Of a DNA stretch of 64,000 bases, positions 1 through 54,693 are shown piece by piece. The translations under genes were made by a program, and so were the position numbers. This DNA is from Spirochaetia bacterium (GTDB taxonomy: Bacteria; Spirochaetota; Spirochaetia; SZUA-6; Bin103). Every line of letters starts with the position of its first letter. Position 1 is the stretch's first letter. Where the stretch lies: the NCBI GenBank assembly GCA_965203055.1, contig OZ241863.1:73313-137312 (forward strand). Direction: 5' to 3'. The notes under the pieces were generated by a model that did not search any database, was not told the origin of the DNA, and saw only the letters and a program-made list of their open reading frames with translations.

Positions 1-637
1 AACGTTCGTGGAGCGCGACCTGCCGCAGTTCGGCGCCAATCTCCCATCCCGCACCGTCACGCGTCTCCTGGTGATGCTGGCCCACTACCACGGCCAGCTC
101 ATGAACGTTGGCGAAATCGCCTCGGCGCTGCAGATCGGTCAGGCGACGGTGCGGCGCTACCTGGACCTGTTCGAGCAGCTCTTCATGATCCGGCAGTTGC
201 GCCCGTGGCACGAGAACCTGGGCAAGCGGCAGGTGAAGCGCCCCAAGCTCTACCTCCGAGACTCCGGCCTCTACCATCACCTGATCGGCGTCGCGACGCA
301 GGACGAGCTCCACACCCATCCGCGCATCGGAGCGTCATGGGAGGGGCTCATGCTCGAGAAGATCCTCTTCGAGGCGGCGCCGGAACAAGCGTACTTCTGG
401 GCAACGCATAACGGCGCCGAACTCGATCTGTTGTTGCTGGCGCGCGGCAAGCGGGTGGGCGTGGAGATCAAGCTGGTCGATGCGCCGCGGCGCACGCGGT
501 CCATGGTTTCGGCGCTAAGCGACTTGTCGCTGGACGCGCTCTTCGTGGTATATCCCGGCCGCACGCGGTACGCGCTCGATGACCGCATCACCGCGCTGCC
601 GGCGCACGAACCGTTCCCGGCGGTCCCGGCACCCTGA
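1..637 (+). CDS. DUF4143-domain ATPase, C-terminal part (5' end outside window)
   Basis: ORF 8..637 carries the C-terminal DUF4143-type region typical of AAA_14/DUF4143 ATPases. The N-terminal P-loop part is missing, so the gene starts upstream of the window. Confidence 0.55.
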   Translation, partial: TFVERDLPQFGANLPSRTVTRLLVMLAHYHGQLMNVGEIASALQIGQATVRRYLDLFEQLFMIRQLRPWHENLGKRQVKRPKLYLRDSGLYHHLIGVATQDELHTHPRIGASWEGLMLEKILFEAAPEQAYFWATHNGAELDLLLLARGKRVGVEIKLVDAPRRTRSMVSALSDLSLDALFVVYPGRTRYALDDRITALPAHEPFPAVPAP

Positions 638-21847: not shown

Positions 21848-22732
21848 ATGGACTCACCGAAGACACCGATTGACTTGTTCGGGCGCCCGGCGTACGTCCG
21901 GCCAAACGGGTCGCTGCTCAAGTGGATCGGCAACAAGTATAAGGTCGCAGAGGAGATTACCTCCTATTTCCCGGCCGAGATGCGGGCCTTCTACGACGTG
22001 TTTGTCGGCGGCGGTTCAATCCTGGCCACGGTAGCGCCGGCTCGCGGCGTGGGGTCGGACTCATTCGCGCCCTTGATCGAAATATGGAGCATGATTCGGT
22101 CCGATCCCGCTGTGGTCAAAGGGTGGTACGAGCAGCGCTGGCGGTATGCCATGTCGGGGGACCGCCGGGAGCGGTATGAAGAGATCAAGGCTTCATACAA
22201 CGCCCGGTCGAATGGAGCCGACTTCCTGTATCTCACCCGCGCTTGCTACGGCGGCGTCATCAGGTTCAGGAAGCATGACGGTTATATGTCCACGCCGGTG
22301 GGCATTCATCGGCCCATCGAGCCCCGCAACTTCGCCAAGCGGGTGGACGAATGGCACGTGAGAGTACAAGGCACCGAGTTTATTCGTGCCGATTATGCCG
22401 ACGTAATGGAACGCTGTGAGGCCGGAGATATGGTCTATTGCGACCCTCCGTATACCCACAGTCAAGCTATTTTGTATGGCGCCCAGGACTTCAGCATCGT
22501 TCAGTTGTTCGAGTCGATCGAACGCTGCAAGACGCGAGGTGTTCGCGTCGCCCTGAGCATCGATGGTACCAAGAAGTCCGGGAGTGAGAACTGCCATGTT
22601 CCCATACCGGAAGGGTTGTTCGAGCGGCAGATCCTGGTCAAGACCGGGAGATCGATGCTGCGGCGCTTTCAGATGGATGGCCAGACCCTGGAGTCGGAGG
22701 TCGTGGCGGATCGCCTATTGCTGACGTACTAA
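21848..22732 (+). CDS. Dam-class (D12, alpha-group) DNA N6-adenine methyltransferase
   Basis: KWIGNKY N-terminal motif, FVGGGS (motif I), VYCDPPY (motif IV). About 57% GC. Confidence 0.8.
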   Translation: MDSPKTPIDLFGRPAYVRPNGSLLKWIGNKYKVAEEITSYFPAEMRAFYDVFVGGGSILATVAPARGVGSDSFAPLIEIWSMIRSDPAVVKGWYEQRWRYAMSGDRRERYEEIKASYNARSNGADFLYLTRACYGGVIRFRKHDGYMSTPVGIHRPIEPRNFAKRVDEWHVRVQGTEFIRADYADVMERCEAGDMVYCDPPYTHSQAILYGAQDFSIVQLFESIERCKTRGVRVALSIDGTKKSGSENCHVPIPEGLFERQILVKTGRSMLRRFQMDGQTLESEVVADRLLLTY

Positions 22733-22750
22733 GCTCCTGATGGCGATCAG

Positions 22751-25102
22751 TCAGATGGAGGAAGCTTCAAGGGCATCCCAAAATCGCCGTATCTGTGGCG
22801 GCACGTCGCTTGCTTTGTTTGCTCCTGACATGATCTTTTCCGGCGGAAACTGTCTGCGCAAGAACTCCTTGGCTGGCCCTGAAGCTGATTTTCGATCGAT
22901 CGTCACTATACCGTGCTCAAGGAGAAGCCTGCGTAACCTGCGCCAGCGCCAGGAATCATGAAACAGACGACCCCCATCATCAACGTCGTAGATCGGATTC
23001 GCTCGCTCGTATGCGCGCATCAGCCATTCGAGCAATTCCATTGATCGATCCGACACGTTCCGCCTATCTTGATCTGAATCAGTATCTACCGATGTTCCAC
23101 AATCGGACAGCACACGCATGATCTTATCGGGAATACGTATTGTCTCCTTTCCCTTATCGATCAGACTCTGAACTCCAGCGACATCACGTGGAACCCGGAG
23201 TCCATTCAGTTCCAGCCGGGTGCTCCCGACCTCCACCATTGGCTCCTCGAGCAAGATGTTGTGTGCGTAACACTCTACAAACTTCGTGGCTCCCAAATTC
23301 GTCCGTCGTACTGTAACGCCGTCCAGCGTACAATTTCGCAAAGTGACGCCGGAAAGATCACCGCCGGGAAAGATTACGTTACTTATCTTGAGCCCTGCTA
23401 TGTCAGCCTCGTTGTTCGACCCGAATGCCTTCAACAAGGCCAAGACGATCAGTCCGGCATTTTCCCGAACCTGAGACGCTCGTCGCCATTCGTCACGTCC
23501 CGCCATCGCCAGACGGTTCAGCATTACTTGAAGATCATCAAGAGTTGACAAGGTGTCGTTTGTCATCACCTCTGCTGCAAATCGTTCAGCGACCAACTCG
23601 GGCAACGCAGCGCGACTCAGGATCGCACGCAGGTCTGAATTCGAACCGTACTGCTCGGCAATAACACGGGCAAGGAAGTAGAAGAAATAGACCTCATGCT
23701 CGAACCCGATCGTCTCATGCTTCTCACTGTGGGTGAGAAATGCAAGTGTCGGCATCCGTTCAATGATGATCTGTCTCTCAGACTCGTCAATTTCATCGTG
23801 AAGAAAAAACTCTGCGACTTCCCTTACGGATACACCATCGAGCTCGCGGGTCTCCTGGTTCCACATCTCTTCGGCAAGTTCTCGTACGATCATTTCAAGC
23901 TGATCTTCGGACAACAGCGGTCGCTGTTGGCGATCGAGGATCTTCTCCGCCTGTTCCCGCTTCAGGAAGCTATGGATCAAGGTGTCAAGCAAGTTGCCAT
24001 CTTCAGAAAATTCGCTACCCGTTAGTACCAAATCGACAGTCTTGGCAAAGAACAGCGGCTTATCCATGAGATGACTATCTTGTTGGAACGCCGCGCGGAC
24101 TTTTTTTCGTAACTCATTCTTCCTTTCCGTCGGCAGCGAGTATTGACGCGCGATCTCATTCAGGTAGTCTGACCGGTGGGCGTCGTCCCACGGCGCTATC
24201 TCCACGGGTATGTGCGACCATCGCTGTTTCCCCGTCGCAGCGGCTCGGTCGGCGCGCCGGAGGAACTCTTCCTCGTAATAAGTTGATCTAGCTGAGGTAA
24301 TTATTCTACCGTAGCCATCCAGTTGTTCCAGAAAAGTCGCCAGAGTACTGAAGGCGTCATCATACCCACTGACCCCTAGAAGCTCGTCGAATCCGTCTAT
24401 CACGGGCACCAACAGTCCTACGCGGACCAGGGTTGCAACGGAATGGTAAGTCAGGTTGACCCTCAGATCCTGCAGTTCCGTAGCAAGCGCTTCGTGCAGC
24501 CGCGCCAGGGCGCGGCCTTGCGCATTCACATATAGCAGCAACTTTCCCGTACTGCCGCGCAGGTACCGGTCGGCCTGTTGCCAGACCAGCTCCTGTAGCA
24601 CCCGCGTCTTGCCGGCGCCGGCGCCGCCGGTGGCCATGATGACCTCGGTCACATCAGGCTCGTCATCTTCCATGAGTTCAGTGAGCAACTCCGTGGCGGG
24701 TTGGGGTCCTTTCAGCACCCCGCCCCCATCCGGGCAGCGAGCTCCGGTAGGAACGAATATTTTGTCTTGTCTGGACCGATAGATCATGCGAGCGACATGC
24801 TTCAGATCTGCCATCCGTGTATCCGCAAGAAAAACGGTATACGGCAGGGTCGTACCGTTGGCGCTTGCGGTAACCTCGTGGTCTCGCGAAACCGTAAAAT
24901 TAGCTTCCCGAGGTTCGCCGCGCATTTGCCACTCGGCCTGGAGTCTCCTCCCCGTTGCAGAGATCACGTGGATACCACCCGGGTCTGCAAATGACGTCAG
25001 GTCGCTTTCGATGCGCTCGAGGTCTGCGTCGTATGTCTCGCGCACTTGATCAGCTCCCCAGTTGATGGACGGTAAGCCCCTCGCTGACCAGCGCAGCGTC
25101 AT
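22751..25102 (-). CDS. NACHT/STAND-class NTPase with unknown N-terminal domain and C-terminal pentapeptide repeats
   Basis: 783 aa. Walker A MATGGAGAGKT, Walker B VPVIDGFDEL (NACHT-style hhhhDGxDE), a long helical region, and a C-terminal run of A(D/N)LxG-type pentapeptide repeats (…NVIFPGGDLSGVTLRNCTLDGVTVRRTNLGATKFVEC…). About 52% GC. Confidence 0.7.
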   Translation of the reverse strand: MTLRWSARGLPSINWGADQVRETYDADLERIESDLTSFADPGGIHVISATGRRLQAEWQMRGEPREANFTVSRDHEVTASANGTTLPYTVFLADTRMADLKHVARMIYRSRQDKIFVPTGARCPDGGGVLKGPQPATELLTELMEDDEPDVTEVIMATGGAGAGKTRVLQELVWQQADRYLRGSTGKLLLYVNAQGRALARLHEALATELQDLRVNLTYHSVATLVRVGLLVPVIDGFDELLGVSGYDDAFSTLATFLEQLDGYGRIITSARSTYYEEEFLRRADRAAATGKQRWSHIPVEIAPWDDAHRSDYLNEIARQYSLPTERKNELRKKVRAAFQQDSHLMDKPLFFAKTVDLVLTGSEFSEDGNLLDTLIHSFLKREQAEKILDRQQRPLLSEDQLEMIVRELAEEMWNQETRELDGVSVREVAEFFLHDEIDESERQIIIERMPTLAFLTHSEKHETIGFEHEVYFFYFLARVIAEQYGSNSDLRAILSRAALPELVAERFAAEVMTNDTLSTLDDLQVMLNRLAMAGRDEWRRASQVRENAGLIVLALLKAFGSNNEADIAGLKISNVIFPGGDLSGVTLRNCTLDGVTVRRTNLGATKFVECYAHNILLEEPMVEVGSTRLELNGLRVPRDVAGVQSLIDKGKETIRIPDKIMRVLSDCGTSVDTDSDQDRRNVSDRSMELLEWLMRAYERANPIYDVDDGGRLFHDSWRWRRLRRLLLEHGIVTIDRKSASGPAKEFLRRQFPPEKIMSGANKASDVPPQIRRFWDALEASSI

Positions 25103-25649
25103 TCATCGCTGAACCGACCTCTCTGGTACGCATCCATACGACCGCATCGGGGTGGCCTGCGTGCGCTGAGAGCGCGCCCGGGAGAAGATCGTCATCGTCT
25201 GTCACAATGCCAACACAGGTCCGCGCCTGCGCCGCGGCATATAGCGCATCGCAGGCCAGCATGCCGTCTACCATTTTCTGTACGTAGCGGCGGTCGGTGC
25301 CGCTCCCGGTGGGAGGCCGCATCCGGCGCCGCACCGTGCCTCGCGGGTGAAACATCGGGAATTGGATCATCGAGGTGGCAAGCGCCGGACGGACGATCAG
25401 GCCATTGCGCCGGCCGCGCAGCACCGGCAGCAACTCATGCAGCCATGACGCATGGCGGCTCGGCCATCCCTGCTCAGTGATCCATCCTCCGTACAGCCGG
25501 AGATCGAGCTCGCGCGCGTCCGGGAACAGGGTTGCGAACGCGCGAGACACCTGCTCCACGATGGTCAGAGTAACGAGTTCCAGATCAGCTTTCGAGTTCT
25601 GGTCACGGCGGCGAAAATTGTACCAGTCGACAAGAGCCAGCCCTTGCAT
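25050..25649 (-). CDS. NYN/YacP-like (PIN-fold) nuclease domain protein
   Basis: 199 aa. N-terminal LALVDWYNF (the VDGYN-type motif of NYN/YacP) and a distal acidic cluster VGIVTDDDDLLPG. Overlaps the start of the STAND gene by 53 nt, giving the operon order NYN then STAND. Confidence 0.45.
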   Translation of the reverse strand: MQGLALVDWYNFRRRDQNSKADLELVTLTIVEQVSRAFATLFPDARELDLRLYGGWITEQGWPSRHASWLHELLPVLRGRRNGLIVRPALATSMIQFPMFHPRGTVRRRMRPPTGSGTDRRYVQKMVDGMLACDALYAAAQARTCVGIVTDDDDLLPGALSAHAGHPDAVVWMRTREVGSAMNDAALVSEGLTVHQLGS

Positions 25650-25793
25650 GAGTTACTACCCAACCCAATATACGACCTGGAGCGGGGGGTCAGCTTTGGG
25701 AAGCGGCCGGCCCGCCCGGTAGTGGTACGCGACGGGCCGGCTGCCGGTAATGGTGACGGAGGCGCTCCGGTTGCCGTTAGCCCACCCGCCTGA

Positions 25794-25877
25794 TGCCCGG
25801 AAGAGGACTCGAACCTCCACAGCCGTACGGCCACCAGACCCTGAACCTGGCGTGTCTACCAATTTCACCATCCGGGC
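25794..25877 (-). tRNA. tRNA-Leu (anticodon CAG)
   Basis: The reverse complement gives GCCCGGATGGTGAAATTGGTAGACACGCCAGGTTCAGGGTCTGGTGGCCGTACGGCTGTGGAGGTTCGAGTCCTCTTCCGGGCA: a long-arm class II tRNA with anticodon loop CTCAGGG. Its 3' end faces the low-GC islet. Confidence 0.85.
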
Positions 25878-25971
25878 AGGATGACGGTAACAACCTACCC
25901 CTGCCCGGCACTCCTGTCAAGACCTTGAGACGAGACGAGACGAGATCTGCGCCGCGCGGCGGGAGCGCCGG

Positions 25972-50965: not shown

Positions 50966-52051
<1,086 letters not shown>

Positions 52052-52171
52052 GACGCACCCTCAGAGTAACGATGCGGCGCCGCCGCGGTCAAACCCCGCC
52101 AGCCTCCCCCATCCCCACCGCCGCCGGTTCACCCCGCGCTTTGTGGGCACGAGCTGTACTCCCCGGATCCC

Positions 52172-52200
52172 TTGACCAAGTTGGCTCTATTTCCTATCGT
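52172..52200 (+). promoter_or_regulatory. Putative sigma-70-type promoter of the higB-higA operon
   Basis: TTGACC, 17 nt spacer, TATCGT, about 37 nt upstream of the higB ATG in an AT-richer spacer. Confidence 0.35.
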
Positions 52201-52236
52201 GCTACTTGAGTTGATTTCGGGAGCGAAGTATATTGA

Positions 52237-52530
52237 ATGAGAATTATCGCCAAGAGGACGTTGCGGGAGTTCTGGGAGCGTCACCGGGACTCGGAACCTC
52301 CGTTGCGCGCTTGGTATCAGGAAGTCGCGCGAGGGGATTGGGATACGCCGGCCAAGTTGAAGACGCGGTATCCGAGCGCCAGCATCGTCGCCGGCAACCG
52401 CGTGGTGTTCAACATCAAGGGCAATACCTACCGGCTGGTAACGAAGATCAACTATCGATACCGCGCCGTCTACGTGCGGTTCCTGGGAACCCACGCCGAG
52501 TATGACGCCGTGAACGTGGAGGAGGTGTGA
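52237..52530 (+). CDS. higB: HigB-type toxin (E. coli K-12 HigB-like, RelE/ParE superfamily)
   Basis: 97 aa. …VVFNIKGNTYRLVTKINYRYRAVYVRFLGTHAEYD closely parallels E. coli HigB (…YVFNVGGNELRVV…YIREVMTHKEYD). The toxin-first gene order matches higBA. Confidence 0.7.
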   Translation: MRIIAKRTLREFWERHRDSEPPLRAWYQEVARGDWDTPAKLKTRYPSASIVAGNRVVFNIKGNTYRLVTKINYRYRAVYVRFLGTHAEYDAVNVEEV

Positions 52531-52531
52531 G

Positions 52532-53746
52532 ATGGCCGAGGTCAAGCCGATCCGGACCGAGGCGGGCTATACGGCCGCGCTCGCCCGGGTCGACGAGCTG
52601 ATGGACGCCGAGCCAGGGACCCCGGAAGGCGAGGAACTCGATGTGCTGGTTGACTTGGTGGAGTTGTACGAGAGCAAGCACGTGCCGATGGAGTATCCGA
52701 GCCCCATCGCCGCGCTCGAGTTCCGCATGGAGCAGGCGGGGTTGGCACCGCGCGATCTGGTCCCTTACCTCGGCAGCCGCGCCAAAGTGGCGGAAGTGCT
52801 CTCCGGCAAGCGCGCAATCACCATGCCGATGGCGCGCGCCCTCCATCGGCATCTGGGAATACCGGCCGAGGTGCTGCTGCGCGAGCCAACTGCAATCGCC
52901 GAGCAACCGTTGGCGAACATCGAATGGAGCCGCTTTCCTCTCAGGGAGATGGCCAAGCGGCAGTGGATTCCGGATCTCCCTGACCTCGCGCAGCGGGCGG
53001 AAGCGCTGGTCGGCGATTTGATCAAGCGCTCCGGCACCCGGCAGGTGGCTCCTGTCGGTCTGTACCGCAAGAACGACCGCCTCCGTACCAACGCCAAGAC
53101 CGATTGGTATGCGCTCCAGGCGTGGTGCTGGCAGGTGTTGGCGTCGGCGAATCGGAATCCGCCGACGACGAAGTACGCGCCGGGCACGGTCACCTTGGAG
53201 TTCCTCGGACAGGTCGCACGGCTGAGTCGTGAGGAGGAGGGCCCGCGTCTTGCCCACGAGTTCCTGGCAACCCACGGCATCCCGCTGGTCGTCGAACGGC
53301 ATCTGCCGCGCACCTATCTCGACGGAGCGGCGCTCCGTCTCGGCGGCCGGCCGGTGGTCGCTCTGACCCTGCGCTACGACCGCATCGACGGCTTCTGGTT
53401 CTGTCTGCTGCACGAGCTGGCGCACGTTGGCCGCCACCTGGACCACGATGTCGGCGCCGCCTTCGTCGACGACCTGTCACTGCGCAAGCCGGATGGGACA
53501 GCCGAAGACCGGCGCGAGGCGGAGGCGGACGAATGGGCCGCGGAGGCGCTCATCCCGGGCTCGGTCTGGGAAGCGAGCGCGGTGAGGAATGAGCCGACAC
53601 CGCTGGCGGTCATGGGCTTGGCCCAACGCCTGCAGATTCATCCGGCCACGATTGCCGGCAGGGTCCGGTACGAGCGCCGGAACTATCGGCTGCTGTCCCA
53701 ATTCGTCGGCACCGGTAAGGTCCGCCGACAATTCGGCATTACATAA
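52532..53746 (+). CDS. higA: HigA-type HTH antitoxin fused to an ImmA/IrrE (DUF955, HEXXH) metallopeptidase domain
   Basis: The N-terminal about 120 aa aligns by eye with E. coli HigA (…LGSRAKVAEVLSGKRAITMPMARALHRHLGIP versus IGSKSMVSRVLSGKRKLTLEHAKKLATRFGISP). The C-terminal about 280 aa carries LLHELAHV…E…EADEWAAEALIP, the ImmA/IrrE zinc-peptidase signature. Confidence 0.65.
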   Translation: MAEVKPIRTEAGYTAALARVDELMDAEPGTPEGEELDVLVDLVELYESKHVPMEYPSPIAALEFRMEQAGLAPRDLVPYLGSRAKVAEVLSGKRAITMPMARALHRHLGIPAEVLLREPTAIAEQPLANIEWSRFPLREMAKRQWIPDLPDLAQRAEALVGDLIKRSGTRQVAPVGLYRKNDRLRTNAKTDWYALQAWCWQVLASANRNPPTTKYAPGTVTLEFLGQVARLSREEEGPRLAHEFLATHGIPLVVERHLPRTYLDGAALRLGGRPVVALTLRYDRIDGFWFCLLHELAHVGRHLDHDVGAAFVDDLSLRKPDGTAEDRREAEADEWAAEALIPGSVWEASAVRNEPTPLAVMGLAQRLQIHPATIAGRVRYERRNYRLLSQFVGTGKVRRQFGIT

Positions 53747-54348
53747 ACGGTCTGAGGGCGGGCAGGCGCCGGTGGCCTGCAGTTGGCGTCGAGGGTAGTC
53801 GCTAGAGCTCAGCTCGCTGGGGGTGCGCCCGACTGCGGGCATGACGGCGCGGCGGAGGGCGGGGAGCAGCGCCTGCAGGTAGCGGGCCACCGTGCGGTGG
53901 TCGGCCAGCACCCGGCCCACGCCGTCGTCGATGAGGGCGCGCACGGGGAGCGGCGCCGCGGCCGGTACTTCGTGCCGGTCGAGCACGCGCGGCGCGCCGT
54001 GCGGGGTGACCAGCACGTCCACCCACAGGTCGCGCCAGGCGAAGCGGCCGGCGGCCAGCGTCACTTGGTCGCAGATGTTGAAGTAGAGCGCGCGCGGAGC
54101 GGTCAAACCGGGCGCCATCCAGGCGTACAGGTTGTAGGGGCGGTCCTCCCAGAACAGGCCGAAGGTTACCGTGCCGCGCGGCAGATGGATGCCGCCCGGA
54201 TCGTAGGCGCGGTCGCTGACGAAGTGCAGAACGCCGTGGCCCGGGCGCAGCAGCAGCAGGCGGGCGCGGAACCGGTTGCGGCGCCCGTCGGGGTAGCGCT
54301 TCTCCTCGTAGCACCAGCGCGGGTAGCCGCGGCCGGTCACGGGCGCCA
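53477..54348 (-). CDS. DUF402 (FomD-like nucleoside-phosphatase-fold) domain protein; 3' end uncertain
   Basis: …YFNICDQVTLAAGRFAWRDLWVDVLVTPHGAPRVLDRHE matches the DUF402 motif (Y.N…DL.LDV.V.PDG…LDEDE). Start at MAPVTG overlaps the atl stop. The frame stays open to 53477, which would place about 270 nt antisense over higA. Confidence 0.4.
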
Positions 54349-54693
54349 TTGGCTGGCGGCCAGATCGAGGCGCCCCGCGCCGTCGACCGCAACCCCTTCG
54401 GCCAGCAGCAACGCGCGTTGCCGTTCCAGCCCGTTGCCCGGCGGCAGGCGAATGACGCCGCCGGCGCCGATCACGCGATGCCAGGGCAGCGCGCGGCCGG
54501 CGTAGACCCGCAACGCCCAGGCCACTTGGCGCGCCGCCCGCGGATTCCCGGCCTGCGCCGCTACCTGACCGTAGGTGGCAACCCGCCCGCACGGGATCGC
54601 CGCCACCACCCCGGCGATGCGCTGCAGCAGACCTTCCGCCGCCGCAGGCGCGGAGCGGCTCGGCGCGCCGGCGCCGGCAACGTGCGCCGCCAC
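54337..54693 (-). CDS. atl: Alkyltransferase-like protein (Atl; MGMT-fold DNA-binding domain with Trp replacing the active-site Cys)
   Basis: 118 aa. PWHRVIGAGG in place of the MGMT PCHRV, as in E. coli Atl/YbaZ. Confidence 0.7.
   Translation of the reverse strand: MAAHVAGAGAPSRSAPAAAEGLLQRIAGVVAAIPCGRVATYGQVAAQAGNPRAARQVAWALRVYAGRALPWHRVIGAGGVIRLPPGNGLERQRALLLAEGVAVDGAGRLDLAASQWRP

Follow-up and report, generated by a model that had tools for sequence, protein, structure and literature searches.

What kind of system is formed when a toxin gene is followed by a gene that specifies an antitoxin and a zinc peptidase in a single polypeptide? The question is raised by a two-gene locus at positions 52237–53746 of a 64,000-nucleotide stretch of contig OZ241863.1 (positions 73,313 to 137,312 of the forward strand, assembly GCA_965203055.1) from an uncultured Spirochaetia bacterium, a stretch referred to in its entirety as the window. 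The first gene of the locus (A) encodes a HigB-family toxin, and the second (B) a HigA antitoxin domain that continues into a peptidase of the M78 (ImmA/IrrE/CapP) type. The locus may best be described as a horizontally acquired, autoregulated two-gene toxin–antitoxin (TA)-type cassette with protease gating, a combined statement to which a probability of roughly 0.55 is assigned. Its identity as HigB plus a HigA–M78 fusion, the A/B core of the PD-λ-2 defence family, is highly probable, and signal-gated proteolysis of the HigA part, reasoned by analogy with related peptidases, is a tentative proposal standing at somewhat less than even odds. The two genes and the parts of their products are located as follows.

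52237..52530, + strand: gene A, 97 aa, HigB-family toxin of the E. coli K-12 type
52532..53746, + strand: gene B, 404 aa, HigA domain fused to an M78 peptidase, beginning 1 nt after A
52532..52882, + strand: HigA antitoxin domain, B residues 1–117, toxin-binding helices and an XRE helix-turn-helix (HTH) with SGKR
52883..52909, + strand: inter-domain linker, B residues 118–126, predicted local distance difference test (pLDDT) below 50, opening the natural split zone 116–145
52910..53746 (stop codon included), + strand: M78 (ImmA/IrrE/CapP-type) zinc metallopeptidase module, B residues 127–404
53411..53425, + strand: HELAH codons, H294/E295/H298, zinc-binding and catalytic motif by sequence reading and conservation
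53516..53518, + strand: codon of E329, predicted third zinc ligand, ExxAD/N motif

Identity of the two gene products

Both open reading frames (ORFs) proposed in the first-pass annotation of the window are present on the plus strand (52237..52530 and 52532..53746), and its likening of A to E. coli K-12 HigB holds. The protein matches Pfam HigB_toxin (PF09907, E=1.1e-31, 109 bits against a cutoff of 27) and, among solved structures, the HigB chains 5IFG_A and 5YCL_B of E. coli/Shigella (E=5e-8), and the PADLOC profile PD-Lambda-2_A (PDLC03979) covers it from end to end (E=2.4e-41, model positions 1–97 of 97). Residues of the E. coli HigB motif, namely F58, G62–N63, R66, T85–H86, and Y89, are well conserved across 73 family members. 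As judged from these matches A is an E. coli-type HigB, for which RNase activity is predicted.

The N-terminal part of B had been described as an E. coli-type HigA module including the SGKR-containing HTH helix, a description supported both by alignment to solved chains and by structural comparison. Residues 7–112 align to E. coli HigA (5IFG_B and 5YCL_A, E=4e-7), with the SGKR helix lying within the aligned region (B VLSGKRAITMPMARAL vs HigA VLSGKRKLTLEHAKKL), and Foldseek matches the B N-terminus to E. coli HigA structures 6JQ4 and 6KML_B (E ~4e-4). The ~116 N-terminal residues are also ~50% identical to short stand-alone HigA proteins of E. coli plasmids and of phage D6, while the NCBIfam profile TIGR02607 (antidote_HigA) scores far below its cutoff (E=0.002) and is uninformative. 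In a full-length AlphaFold2 model of B (pLDDT 79) the HigA domain (residues 1–117) is followed by the linker (118–126), which is flexible as modelled, and by the C-terminal region, for which Foldseek already returns CapP (7T5T) and IrrE/PprI.

For this C-terminal region the first-pass annotation had pointed to LLHELAHV (residues 292–299) and a downstream glutamate as marks of an ImmA/IrrE zinc peptidase, and the HExxH…E site indeed proves intact on alignment and conserved family-wide. The downstream motif is EAEADEWAAEALIP from residue 329, EAEADEW occupying residues 329–335. In an alignment of 138 sequences, the most distant of them 34% identical, H294, H298, and E329 never vary and E295 is kept in at least 90%; in another of 75 sequences, with remote plasmid and phage homologues among them, each of the four residues is conserved in at least 97%. 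From what is established for M78/IrrE peptidases, E329 is predicted to act as the third zinc ligand. The Pfam Peptidase_M78 profile (PF06114) matches residues 286–369 with E=2e-4 and 21.6 bits, the gathering score being 22; M78 membership was accepted despite this because of the invariance of the zinc site and the structural matches to CapP, IrrE, and PprI. Modelled alone from a more diverse alignment, residues 120–404 form one compact, mostly helical domain (AlphaFold2, pLDDT 90.3, predicted template-modelling score 0.90), and Foldseek with this model finds CapP (7T5T, E=4.7e-3, probability 1.00), IrrE (3DTI, probability 0.97), and PprI (8SLM/8SLN). The CapP and IrrE alignments span only ~170–180 columns with template-modelling scores near 0.3, and the model is consistent with an M78-like peptidase core bearing a family-specific N-terminal elaboration. 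Among defence profiles, PADLOC PD-Lambda-2_B (PDLC03982) aligns with nearly the whole of B (E=8.3e-138, residues 1–401 on model positions 1–396 of 402) and the capP profile also scores (E=3e-6), whereas the NCBIfam Lit profile gives a motif-level match only (E=0.07) that is uninformative in itself.

The full-length PADLOC matches place components A and B of PD-λ-2 in the window, an assignment made through these profiles and not through the ECOR42 sequences. PD-λ-2 was recovered from E. coli ECOR42 by functional selection (Vassallo et al. 2022, Nat Microbiol, PMC9519451), and has three genes, the first HigB-like, the second encoding a HigA-like HTH that is fused to an ImmA/IrrE peptidase at the C-terminal end, and the third akin to a protein of phage P4 (PMC9519451). 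The HHpred table of that study assigns the third gene, C, to Pfam Beta_protein (PF14350), and gives a layout for the reference B protein with the HTH near residues 60–120 and M78 near 246–374, the M78 family profile reaching 99.1%. The system confers defence of the abortive infection (Abi) type, gene C being needed against λvir in E. coli, and its B protein was toxic when overexpressed alone and was rescued by co-expressed A (PMC9519451).

Distribution, mobility and selection

Close homologues of B number more than 3,300. When representatives at 50% identity were searched exhaustively, 9,906 clusters passed E<=1e-3, and at least 598 passed the stricter limit of E<=1e-30. Since ~400-aa proteins aligning with B from end to end make up nearly all of the top 150 clusters, the HigA–M78 fusion constitutes a large and stable family. 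A species-level genome scan yielded 80 related loci (L001–L080, 54–81% identity) from some ten phyla, in metagenome-assembled genomes (MAGs) labelled Spirochaetia, Alphaproteobacteria, Gammaproteobacteria, Gemmatimonadota, Vicinamibacterales, Latescibacterota, Thermodesulfobacteriota, Binatia, Dadabacteria, and Chloroflexota/Dehalococcoidia; several isolate names among the relatives resemble those of sponge-symbiont bins. In 64 of the 80 loci an intact A immediately precedes a full-length B, and counting split or truncated copies of B raises this number to 69. Relatives of B (46–55% identity) are also encoded by 11 predicted viral contigs (L089–L099, IMG/VR; G+C content, GC, 0.47–0.66), ten of which carry A and none C. 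The first-pass annotation had suggested a toxin partnership for the long HigA–M78 protein, and this survey bears it out, with A directly upstream in 69 of 80 loci and 10 of 11 viral contigs, rather than revealing an ordinary XRE–M78 regulator unrelated to a toxin. A third gene conserved across the family was not found, the biggest downstream cluster being present in ~10 of 71 intact loci.

The genomic context of the cassette varies, in support of its mobility. The closest relative, at 90% identity, occupies the same site between trpS and a DUF402 gene, and an 84% identical copy is found in an unrelated context, flanked by uricase/transthyretin genes on one side and an acetyltransferase gene on the other. 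The host of the window groups with MAGs labelled "Spirochaetia" (trpS 84–97% identical), and in sister MAGs (L070, L005, L009) the trpS–DUF402 gap, corresponding to 52052–53805 of the window, contains differing cargo: N6/N4 DNA methylases, an ATPase_2/DUF234 protein, a Phd/YefM antitoxin, a second partial copy of B, and a 1,210-aa Eco57I/MmeI-type enzyme with DUF7008. Because this cargo differs between sister genomes, the trpS-adjacent site is regarded as a variable hotspot for defence and mobile genes, of which the window carries the minimal content. In one of the viral contigs (L089) A–B is found between an endolysin/holin-like lysis region and a P4-type integrase, a typical position for a prophage moron.

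Base composition and substitution rates complete this picture. The claim that the locus is AT-richer than its flanks is confirmed by the GC profile (0.58–0.60 at 52050–52500 and 0.64–0.69 across most of B, the flanks being at ~0.70–0.75) as well as by third-codon-position GC (GC3; 0.81–0.82 in A and B vs 0.88–0.93 in adjoining genes). Ratios of non-synonymous to synonymous substitution rates (dN/dS), computed against copies in other contexts (L009 and L086), are 0.33–0.41 for A, 0.15–0.17 for the HigA domain, the lowest in the cassette, 0.36 for the middle region of B, and 0.22–0.34 for its peptidase part. With values of 0.15–0.41 throughout, all parts of the cassette are under purifying selection and therefore functional, and since the synonymous divergence (dS) to copies elsewhere is only 0.25–0.44, its spread is recent relative to host divergence. 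The comparative sequence data thus point to a cassette that is horizontally acquired and mobile across phyla and phage-like contigs.

Natural decay and the polarity of toxin and antitoxin

Which of the two proteins is the toxic partner can be approached through naturally broken copies, and for this purpose each of the 80 loci was classed by whether A, the HigA domain, and the peptidase module are intact. Approximately 20% hold a disrupted A or B. B is disrupted in 12 of the 80 (L034, L043, L063, L066, L067, L068, L071, L075, L077, L078, and L080 among them), the first lesion always falling in residues 116–145, just past the HigA domain. Stops occur at residue 119, at W132 in four loci, and at 142 and 143, and frameshifts or deletions at ~116–130, 128, 129, and 143. 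The W132 change (TGG→TAG) represents at least three independent events, a single inherited stop being ruled out by the differing flanking sequences among L043/L077, L067, and L071. A lesion within residues 1–116 is seen only in one multi-stop pseudogene, in which A is also lost. Given at least 8 independent cases, the chance of such lesions falling within 30 codons is ~1e-8 under neutral scatter over ~290 codons.

In all five loci that combine an intact A with a broken B the HigA domain is retained, and in five other loci B is intact though A is missing, truncated, or stopped (L005, L062, L022, L047, L014). This pattern suggests that HigB is the toxic partner and the HigA domain its indispensable neutraliser, with the peptidase module separable and seemingly dispensable for neutralisation. 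One explanation of the clustering may be that only a clean cut in the linker leaves a stable antitoxin. Four loci in which the single lesion lies at the boundary (L034, L043, L066, L068) may even be functional splits into HigA and a free peptidase, as in ImmR/ImmA, and the invariant M140 is, speculatively, a possible restart codon.

The opposite polarity is also conceivable, the peptidase of B being a toxic effector that cleaves an essential host protein, as Lit cleaves EF-Tu, and A serving as its antitoxin or inhibitor. Such an assignment would account for the toxicity of overexpressed PD-λ-2 B and its rescue by A (Vassallo 2022), and is in line with the invariance of the peptidase active site and the weak motif-level similarity to Lit (NCBIfam E=0.07). 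However, the decay pattern fits poorly with B as toxin and A as antitoxin. The five loci that keep B intact after losing a functional A imply that B alone is tolerated at native expression, A retains its HigB-type residues and is under purifying selection, and the part of a broken B that is kept beside an intact A is the HigA domain, not the peptidase. Reversed polarity is therefore considered unlikely. The E. coli result itself may have other causes: one possibility is cross-talk with the homologous HigBA of the host, and A, once bound, probably holds the peptidase in check as well, so that free B would be harmful on overexpression while autorepressed native B is tolerated.

Promoter-like and operator-like region

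Autoregulation of the cassette is suggested by the region immediately preceding A, in which three elements are recognised.

52172..52200, + strand: P1, distal sigma-70-like promoter TTGACC-17-TATCGT, 9/12 matches in a consensus scan
52206..52234, + strand: P2, proximal promoter-like TTGAGT-17-TATATT, stopping 2 nt short of the start codon of A
52219..52224, + strand: GGGAGC box, proximal copy of the operator-like motif GGGANC, conserved in relatives

Two promoter-like sites upstream of A compare with 0.3±0.6 expected in shuffled sequences, and P1 is the very TTGACC-17-TATCGT promoter that the first-pass annotation had picked out, recovered at 52172–52200 by the consensus scan. The related loci (L001–L080), although drawn from several phyla, preserve the 90 nt that precede A, with two tandem -35/-10 pairs: a P1-like site occupies the same relative position in 31 of 69 loci, and the TACTTGACA…TATATA architecture of P2 is kept across phyla in 27 of 69, its -10 element ending 4–6 nt before the ATG. 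Such conservation suggests that P2 functions as a promoter, and a -10 element ending 2–6 nt before the start codon may give rise to a leaderless mRNA. Superimposed on this arrangement are the GGGANC boxes: 42 of 69 loci have one at -20 to -22, and 37 have one at -46/-47. At least two boxes are present in 33 of 69 loci, vs 0.6 expected in shuffles, and in 15 of 69 they form part of a palindrome, GNTCCY-N4-6-RGGANC (GTTCCC-N5-GGGAAC). These boxes are putative binding sites of the HigA domain.

Downstream genes and the CBASS connection

In ~16 related loci a SMODS cyclase or its 5' remnant begins ~20–50 nt after the stop codon of B and on the same strand (L012:6234-7178, L013:6257-7198, L011, L016–L018, L020, L025, L026, L029, L035, L040, L043, L064, L072, L077). 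These cyclases belong to two unrelated families, mutually 21% identical, with a best PADLOC Cyclase match of E=2.5e-127 and Pfam SMODS matches of E=1.8e-32 and 1.8e-6; several of them have decayed while A–B is intact. By analogy, A–B preceding a cyclase resembles the CapH/CapP regulator pair of the antiphage signalling system that works through cyclic oligonucleotides (CBASS), and the position of the pair as an operon leader for CBASS is a prediction that follows from this natural variation.

The cyclase-linked loci invite the alternative that the pair is mainly a transcriptional regulator of neighbouring defence or mobile genes, a fused analogue of CapH–CapP or ImmR–ImmA to which HigB would be an addiction accessory. 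The PADLOC capP score (E=3e-6) and the structural match to CapP agree with this view, as does the description of 15 systems with a CapH–CapP fusion, and of one defence island system associated with restriction–modification (DISARM) preceded by a vapC-like gene and a fusion protein (Lau 2022). In the window, however, nothing co-directional follows B, the next gene being a convergent, housekeeping-type DUF402 gene; in the majority of the 71 intact loci no conserved gene follows B; and several linked cyclases have decayed beside an intact A–B. A predominantly regulatory role is accordingly held to be distinctly unlikely.

A different gene occupies the position directly 3' of B in four loci of Gemmatimonadota and Latescibacterota (L004:6275-7153, L008:6239-7117, L065:6275-7147, L078:5556-6428). 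It encodes a PhyH-family dioxygenase (PF05721, E=9e-17), which is probably the PADLOC candidate family PDC-S34 (4 ORFs matched).

The third gene of PD-λ-2

Does the window then contain a complete PD-λ-2? The ORFs downstream of B in the window have no PADLOC match. Searched by tblastn with two full-length C references, 360-aa β family proteins from Rhizobium lentis and Sinorhizobium terangae plasmids, neither the 64-kb window, where the best E was 0.31, nor the 80 related loci with 5-kb flanks yielded C, and it did not turn up either when PADLOC was run on the 127 ORFs that lie next after B in those loci. A further PADLOC scan of 99 plausible window ORFs covers the 25 most frequent families and does not by itself exclude a single C match. 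By these searches the locus is the A/B core, and not a complete PD-λ-2 by the three-gene definition. The full-length and very strong PADLOC matches of both A and B would also suit a complete system whose third gene lies elsewhere or has diverged too far, but with neither PADLOC (downstream ORFs) nor tblastn (window and ±5 kb around 80 loci) finding C this is very improbable. The A/B pair evidently persists and spreads as a two-gene unit without gene C of the λvir defence.

Relatives of B accompanied by C are observed in L087 (Rhizobium lentis p4), L088 (Sinorhizobium terangae), and L082 (Acinetobacter pNDM-AP_882). These plasmid loci share with the window a B-like protein (37% identity over residues 70–401), the Acinetobacter copy matching PADLOC PD-Lambda-2_B with E=7e-78, but differ from it in having C, in a B N-terminus that is not HigA-like, and in the upstream partner, which is DUF6932 and not HigB. 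On Acinetobacter NDM-1 plasmids C has been reduced to 66 aa by IS30, the same truncated copy being shared by three records. Given B relatives paired either with DUF6932 or with HigB, the peptidase module therefore combines with different front-end partners.

That the pair is an inert, decaying remnant of a mobile element without current function, as the ~20% of related loci with a disrupted A or B and the damaged look of the neighbouring DUF402 ORF might suggest, is hardly credible, since both window genes are intact and full length, dN/dS against L009 and L086 is well below 1 in every domain, and the same cassette stands at the same site in the 90% relative.

Proposed mechanism

CapP, IrrE, and ImmA cut their HTH partners on a signal, and the preferred reading of the window locus, a TA-type cassette gated by its own protease, extends this behaviour to an antitoxin. 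In the resting state the A:B complex would be inert and would repress its own promoter via the GGGANC boxes. A trigger, whether phage infection or another stress, would activate the peptidase module, which would then cut the HigA/HTH part, either in cis or between B subunits. HigB freed in this way would cleave ribosome-bound mRNA, leading to growth arrest or abortive infection, and loss of the HigA/HTH part would also derepress the operon together with any downstream co-transcribed cargo. The flexible linker at 118–126 and the natural splits at 116–145 are compatible with such gating, which is regarded as plausible. Were it true, classical type II TA biology would be linked to the signal sensing of the ImmA/IrrE/CapP peptidases.

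The nature of the trigger is constrained by what B lacks. In CapP and IrrE the activating single-stranded DNA (ssDNA) binds a groove between the peptidase and GAF domains. The model of residues 120–404 is a single compact domain with a partial CapP/IrrE alignment, and a GAF domain was not found in it. The ssDNA sensing of CapP and IrrE, and with it an ssDNA or DNA-damage trigger, is therefore not simply transferable by analogy, and CapP-type sensing by B is unlikely.

This missing GAF domain is one of several observations that weigh against the proposed cassette. The Pfam M78 score of B lies marginally below the gathering threshold, and gene C, required for λvir defence by PD-λ-2 in E. coli, is absent from the window. 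The distal GGGANC box has diverged in the window, as it has in the relative L009, leaving the proximal box, and an inverted-repeat search of the window promoter found none, for which reason the evidence for an operator is drawn from the relatives. The decay analysis rests on 17 loci, some of which are not independent, and the toxicity of E. coli PD-λ-2 B alone, with A rescuing, is the opposite of what simple toxin and antitoxin labels would lead one to expect.

A bolder and decidedly doubtful version of protease gating sees in the pair a portable trigger cassette that is self-addictive, in effect CapH/CapP fused into one protein and armed with a toxin. On an infection or stress signal it would destroy its own HigA/repressor domain, thereby releasing an RNase and switching on whatever defence cargo is transcribed with it. 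That cargo would be the SMODS/CBASS cyclases in the ~16 relatives and, for E. coli PD-λ-2, the β-protein, while the window holds the bare cassette. If this were so, the paradox of the E. coli result would be resolved by toxin and peptidase restraining each other.

Genomic neighbourhood in the window

On the upstream side of A–B the window annotation gives trpS and htpG, and on the 3' side the convergent DUF402 gene is followed by ATL-like, NYN, and tag genes, with no co-directional gene after B. Membership of a prophage or an integrative and conjugative element was considered and ruled out on account of these flanks (htpG/trpS and DUF402/ATL/NYN/tag), the nearest tRNA being 8.6 kb off. The DUF402 gene itself (53477–54400, minus strand) has lost, through a 1-nt indel near its 3' end, the stop codon at which the L084 orthologue (93% identical) terminates, so that its reading frame extends ~110 codons antisense into the 3' end of B. 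The ORF is uncalled by gene callers in the identical metagenome contig L100, and the window copy is possibly a pseudogene, or else carries a C-terminal extension.

Elsewhere in the window, a tRNA-Leu(CAG) gene at 25792–25878 adjoins a block of lower GC3 (21848–25878). This block holds a type II DNA adenine methyltransferase at 21848–22732 (PADLOC MTase_II, E=2e-69), at 22751–25102 on the minus strand a P-loop protein of 783 aa without a PADLOC match, and a 199-aa protein at 25050–25649, and it may be a second defence or mobile islet. At the left edge, an ORF at 8–634 (+ strand) matches the C-terminal part of the PADLOC candidate-system model PDC-S01 (E=1.1e-41). Several window ORFs match the generic ATPase/methylase defence profiles mad3, AriA, PtuA, and GajA in PADLOC and are probably housekeeping ATPases.

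Comparison with known systems

The architecture of the locus has been known since 2009, and one member was shown to be part of an anti-phage system in 2022. Makarova, Wolf, and Koonin described fusions of COG2856 to Xre in operons with RelE and PIN toxins, and suggested that the target of the protease is an Xre repressor serving as the antitoxin, in what they termed a "more complex", three-component TA system (Makarova 2009, PMC2701414). The protease-gated antitoxin suggested in the first-pass annotation was essentially a re-derivation of this published hypothesis. The window locus shares with that class a zinc peptidase fused to an Xre HTH beside a RelE-superfamily toxin; the 2009 work was a genome-wide prediction without experiments, to which the window adds a specific HigB/HigA-type subfamily. 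Earlier sightings of Xre–peptidase fusions next to a toxin-like gene are likewise acknowledged in the PD-λ-2 study (PMC9519451), of which a literature search found no mechanistic follow-up. Beyond what is published the present analysis adds a little, namely a polarity read from natural decay, the clustering of fissions where the two domains of B meet, and the repeated association with SMODS cyclases.

With PD-λ-2 itself the window has in common the HigB-like first gene and a second gene of the same HigA-HTH–M78 layout. The two differ in that the window is without the Beta_protein (PF14350, P4 β-like) gene and belongs to an uncultured high-GC bacterium. The locus is in this sense an ordinary instance of a described architecture, in its widespread two-gene form without the β-protein.

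The E. coli K-12 HigB–HigA pair (YgjN–YgjM; 5IFG, 6KML, 6JQ4) has the same toxin-first order and a PF09907 toxin, and its HigA has the same N-terminal toxin-binding region and SGKR-containing HTH as B. Unlike canonical HigA, the window antitoxin bears an extra zinc peptidase of ~280 aa. CapH/CapP, DdrO/IrrE(PprI), and ImmR/ImmA, in turn, share with the window the M78 fold, the HExxH…E site, and an XRE HTH partner, and the CapH/CapP group also its association with defence operons including CBASS, which is found in some relatives of the window cassette. In the window, in contrast to these three systems, HTH and peptidase are fused and a toxin gene is attached. B also lacks the GAF domain of CapP and IrrE, and hence their type of ssDNA groove. 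Finally, A–B is co-directional with its cargo in relatives and not divergent from it as CapH/CapP is, the window representing the cassette without cargo.

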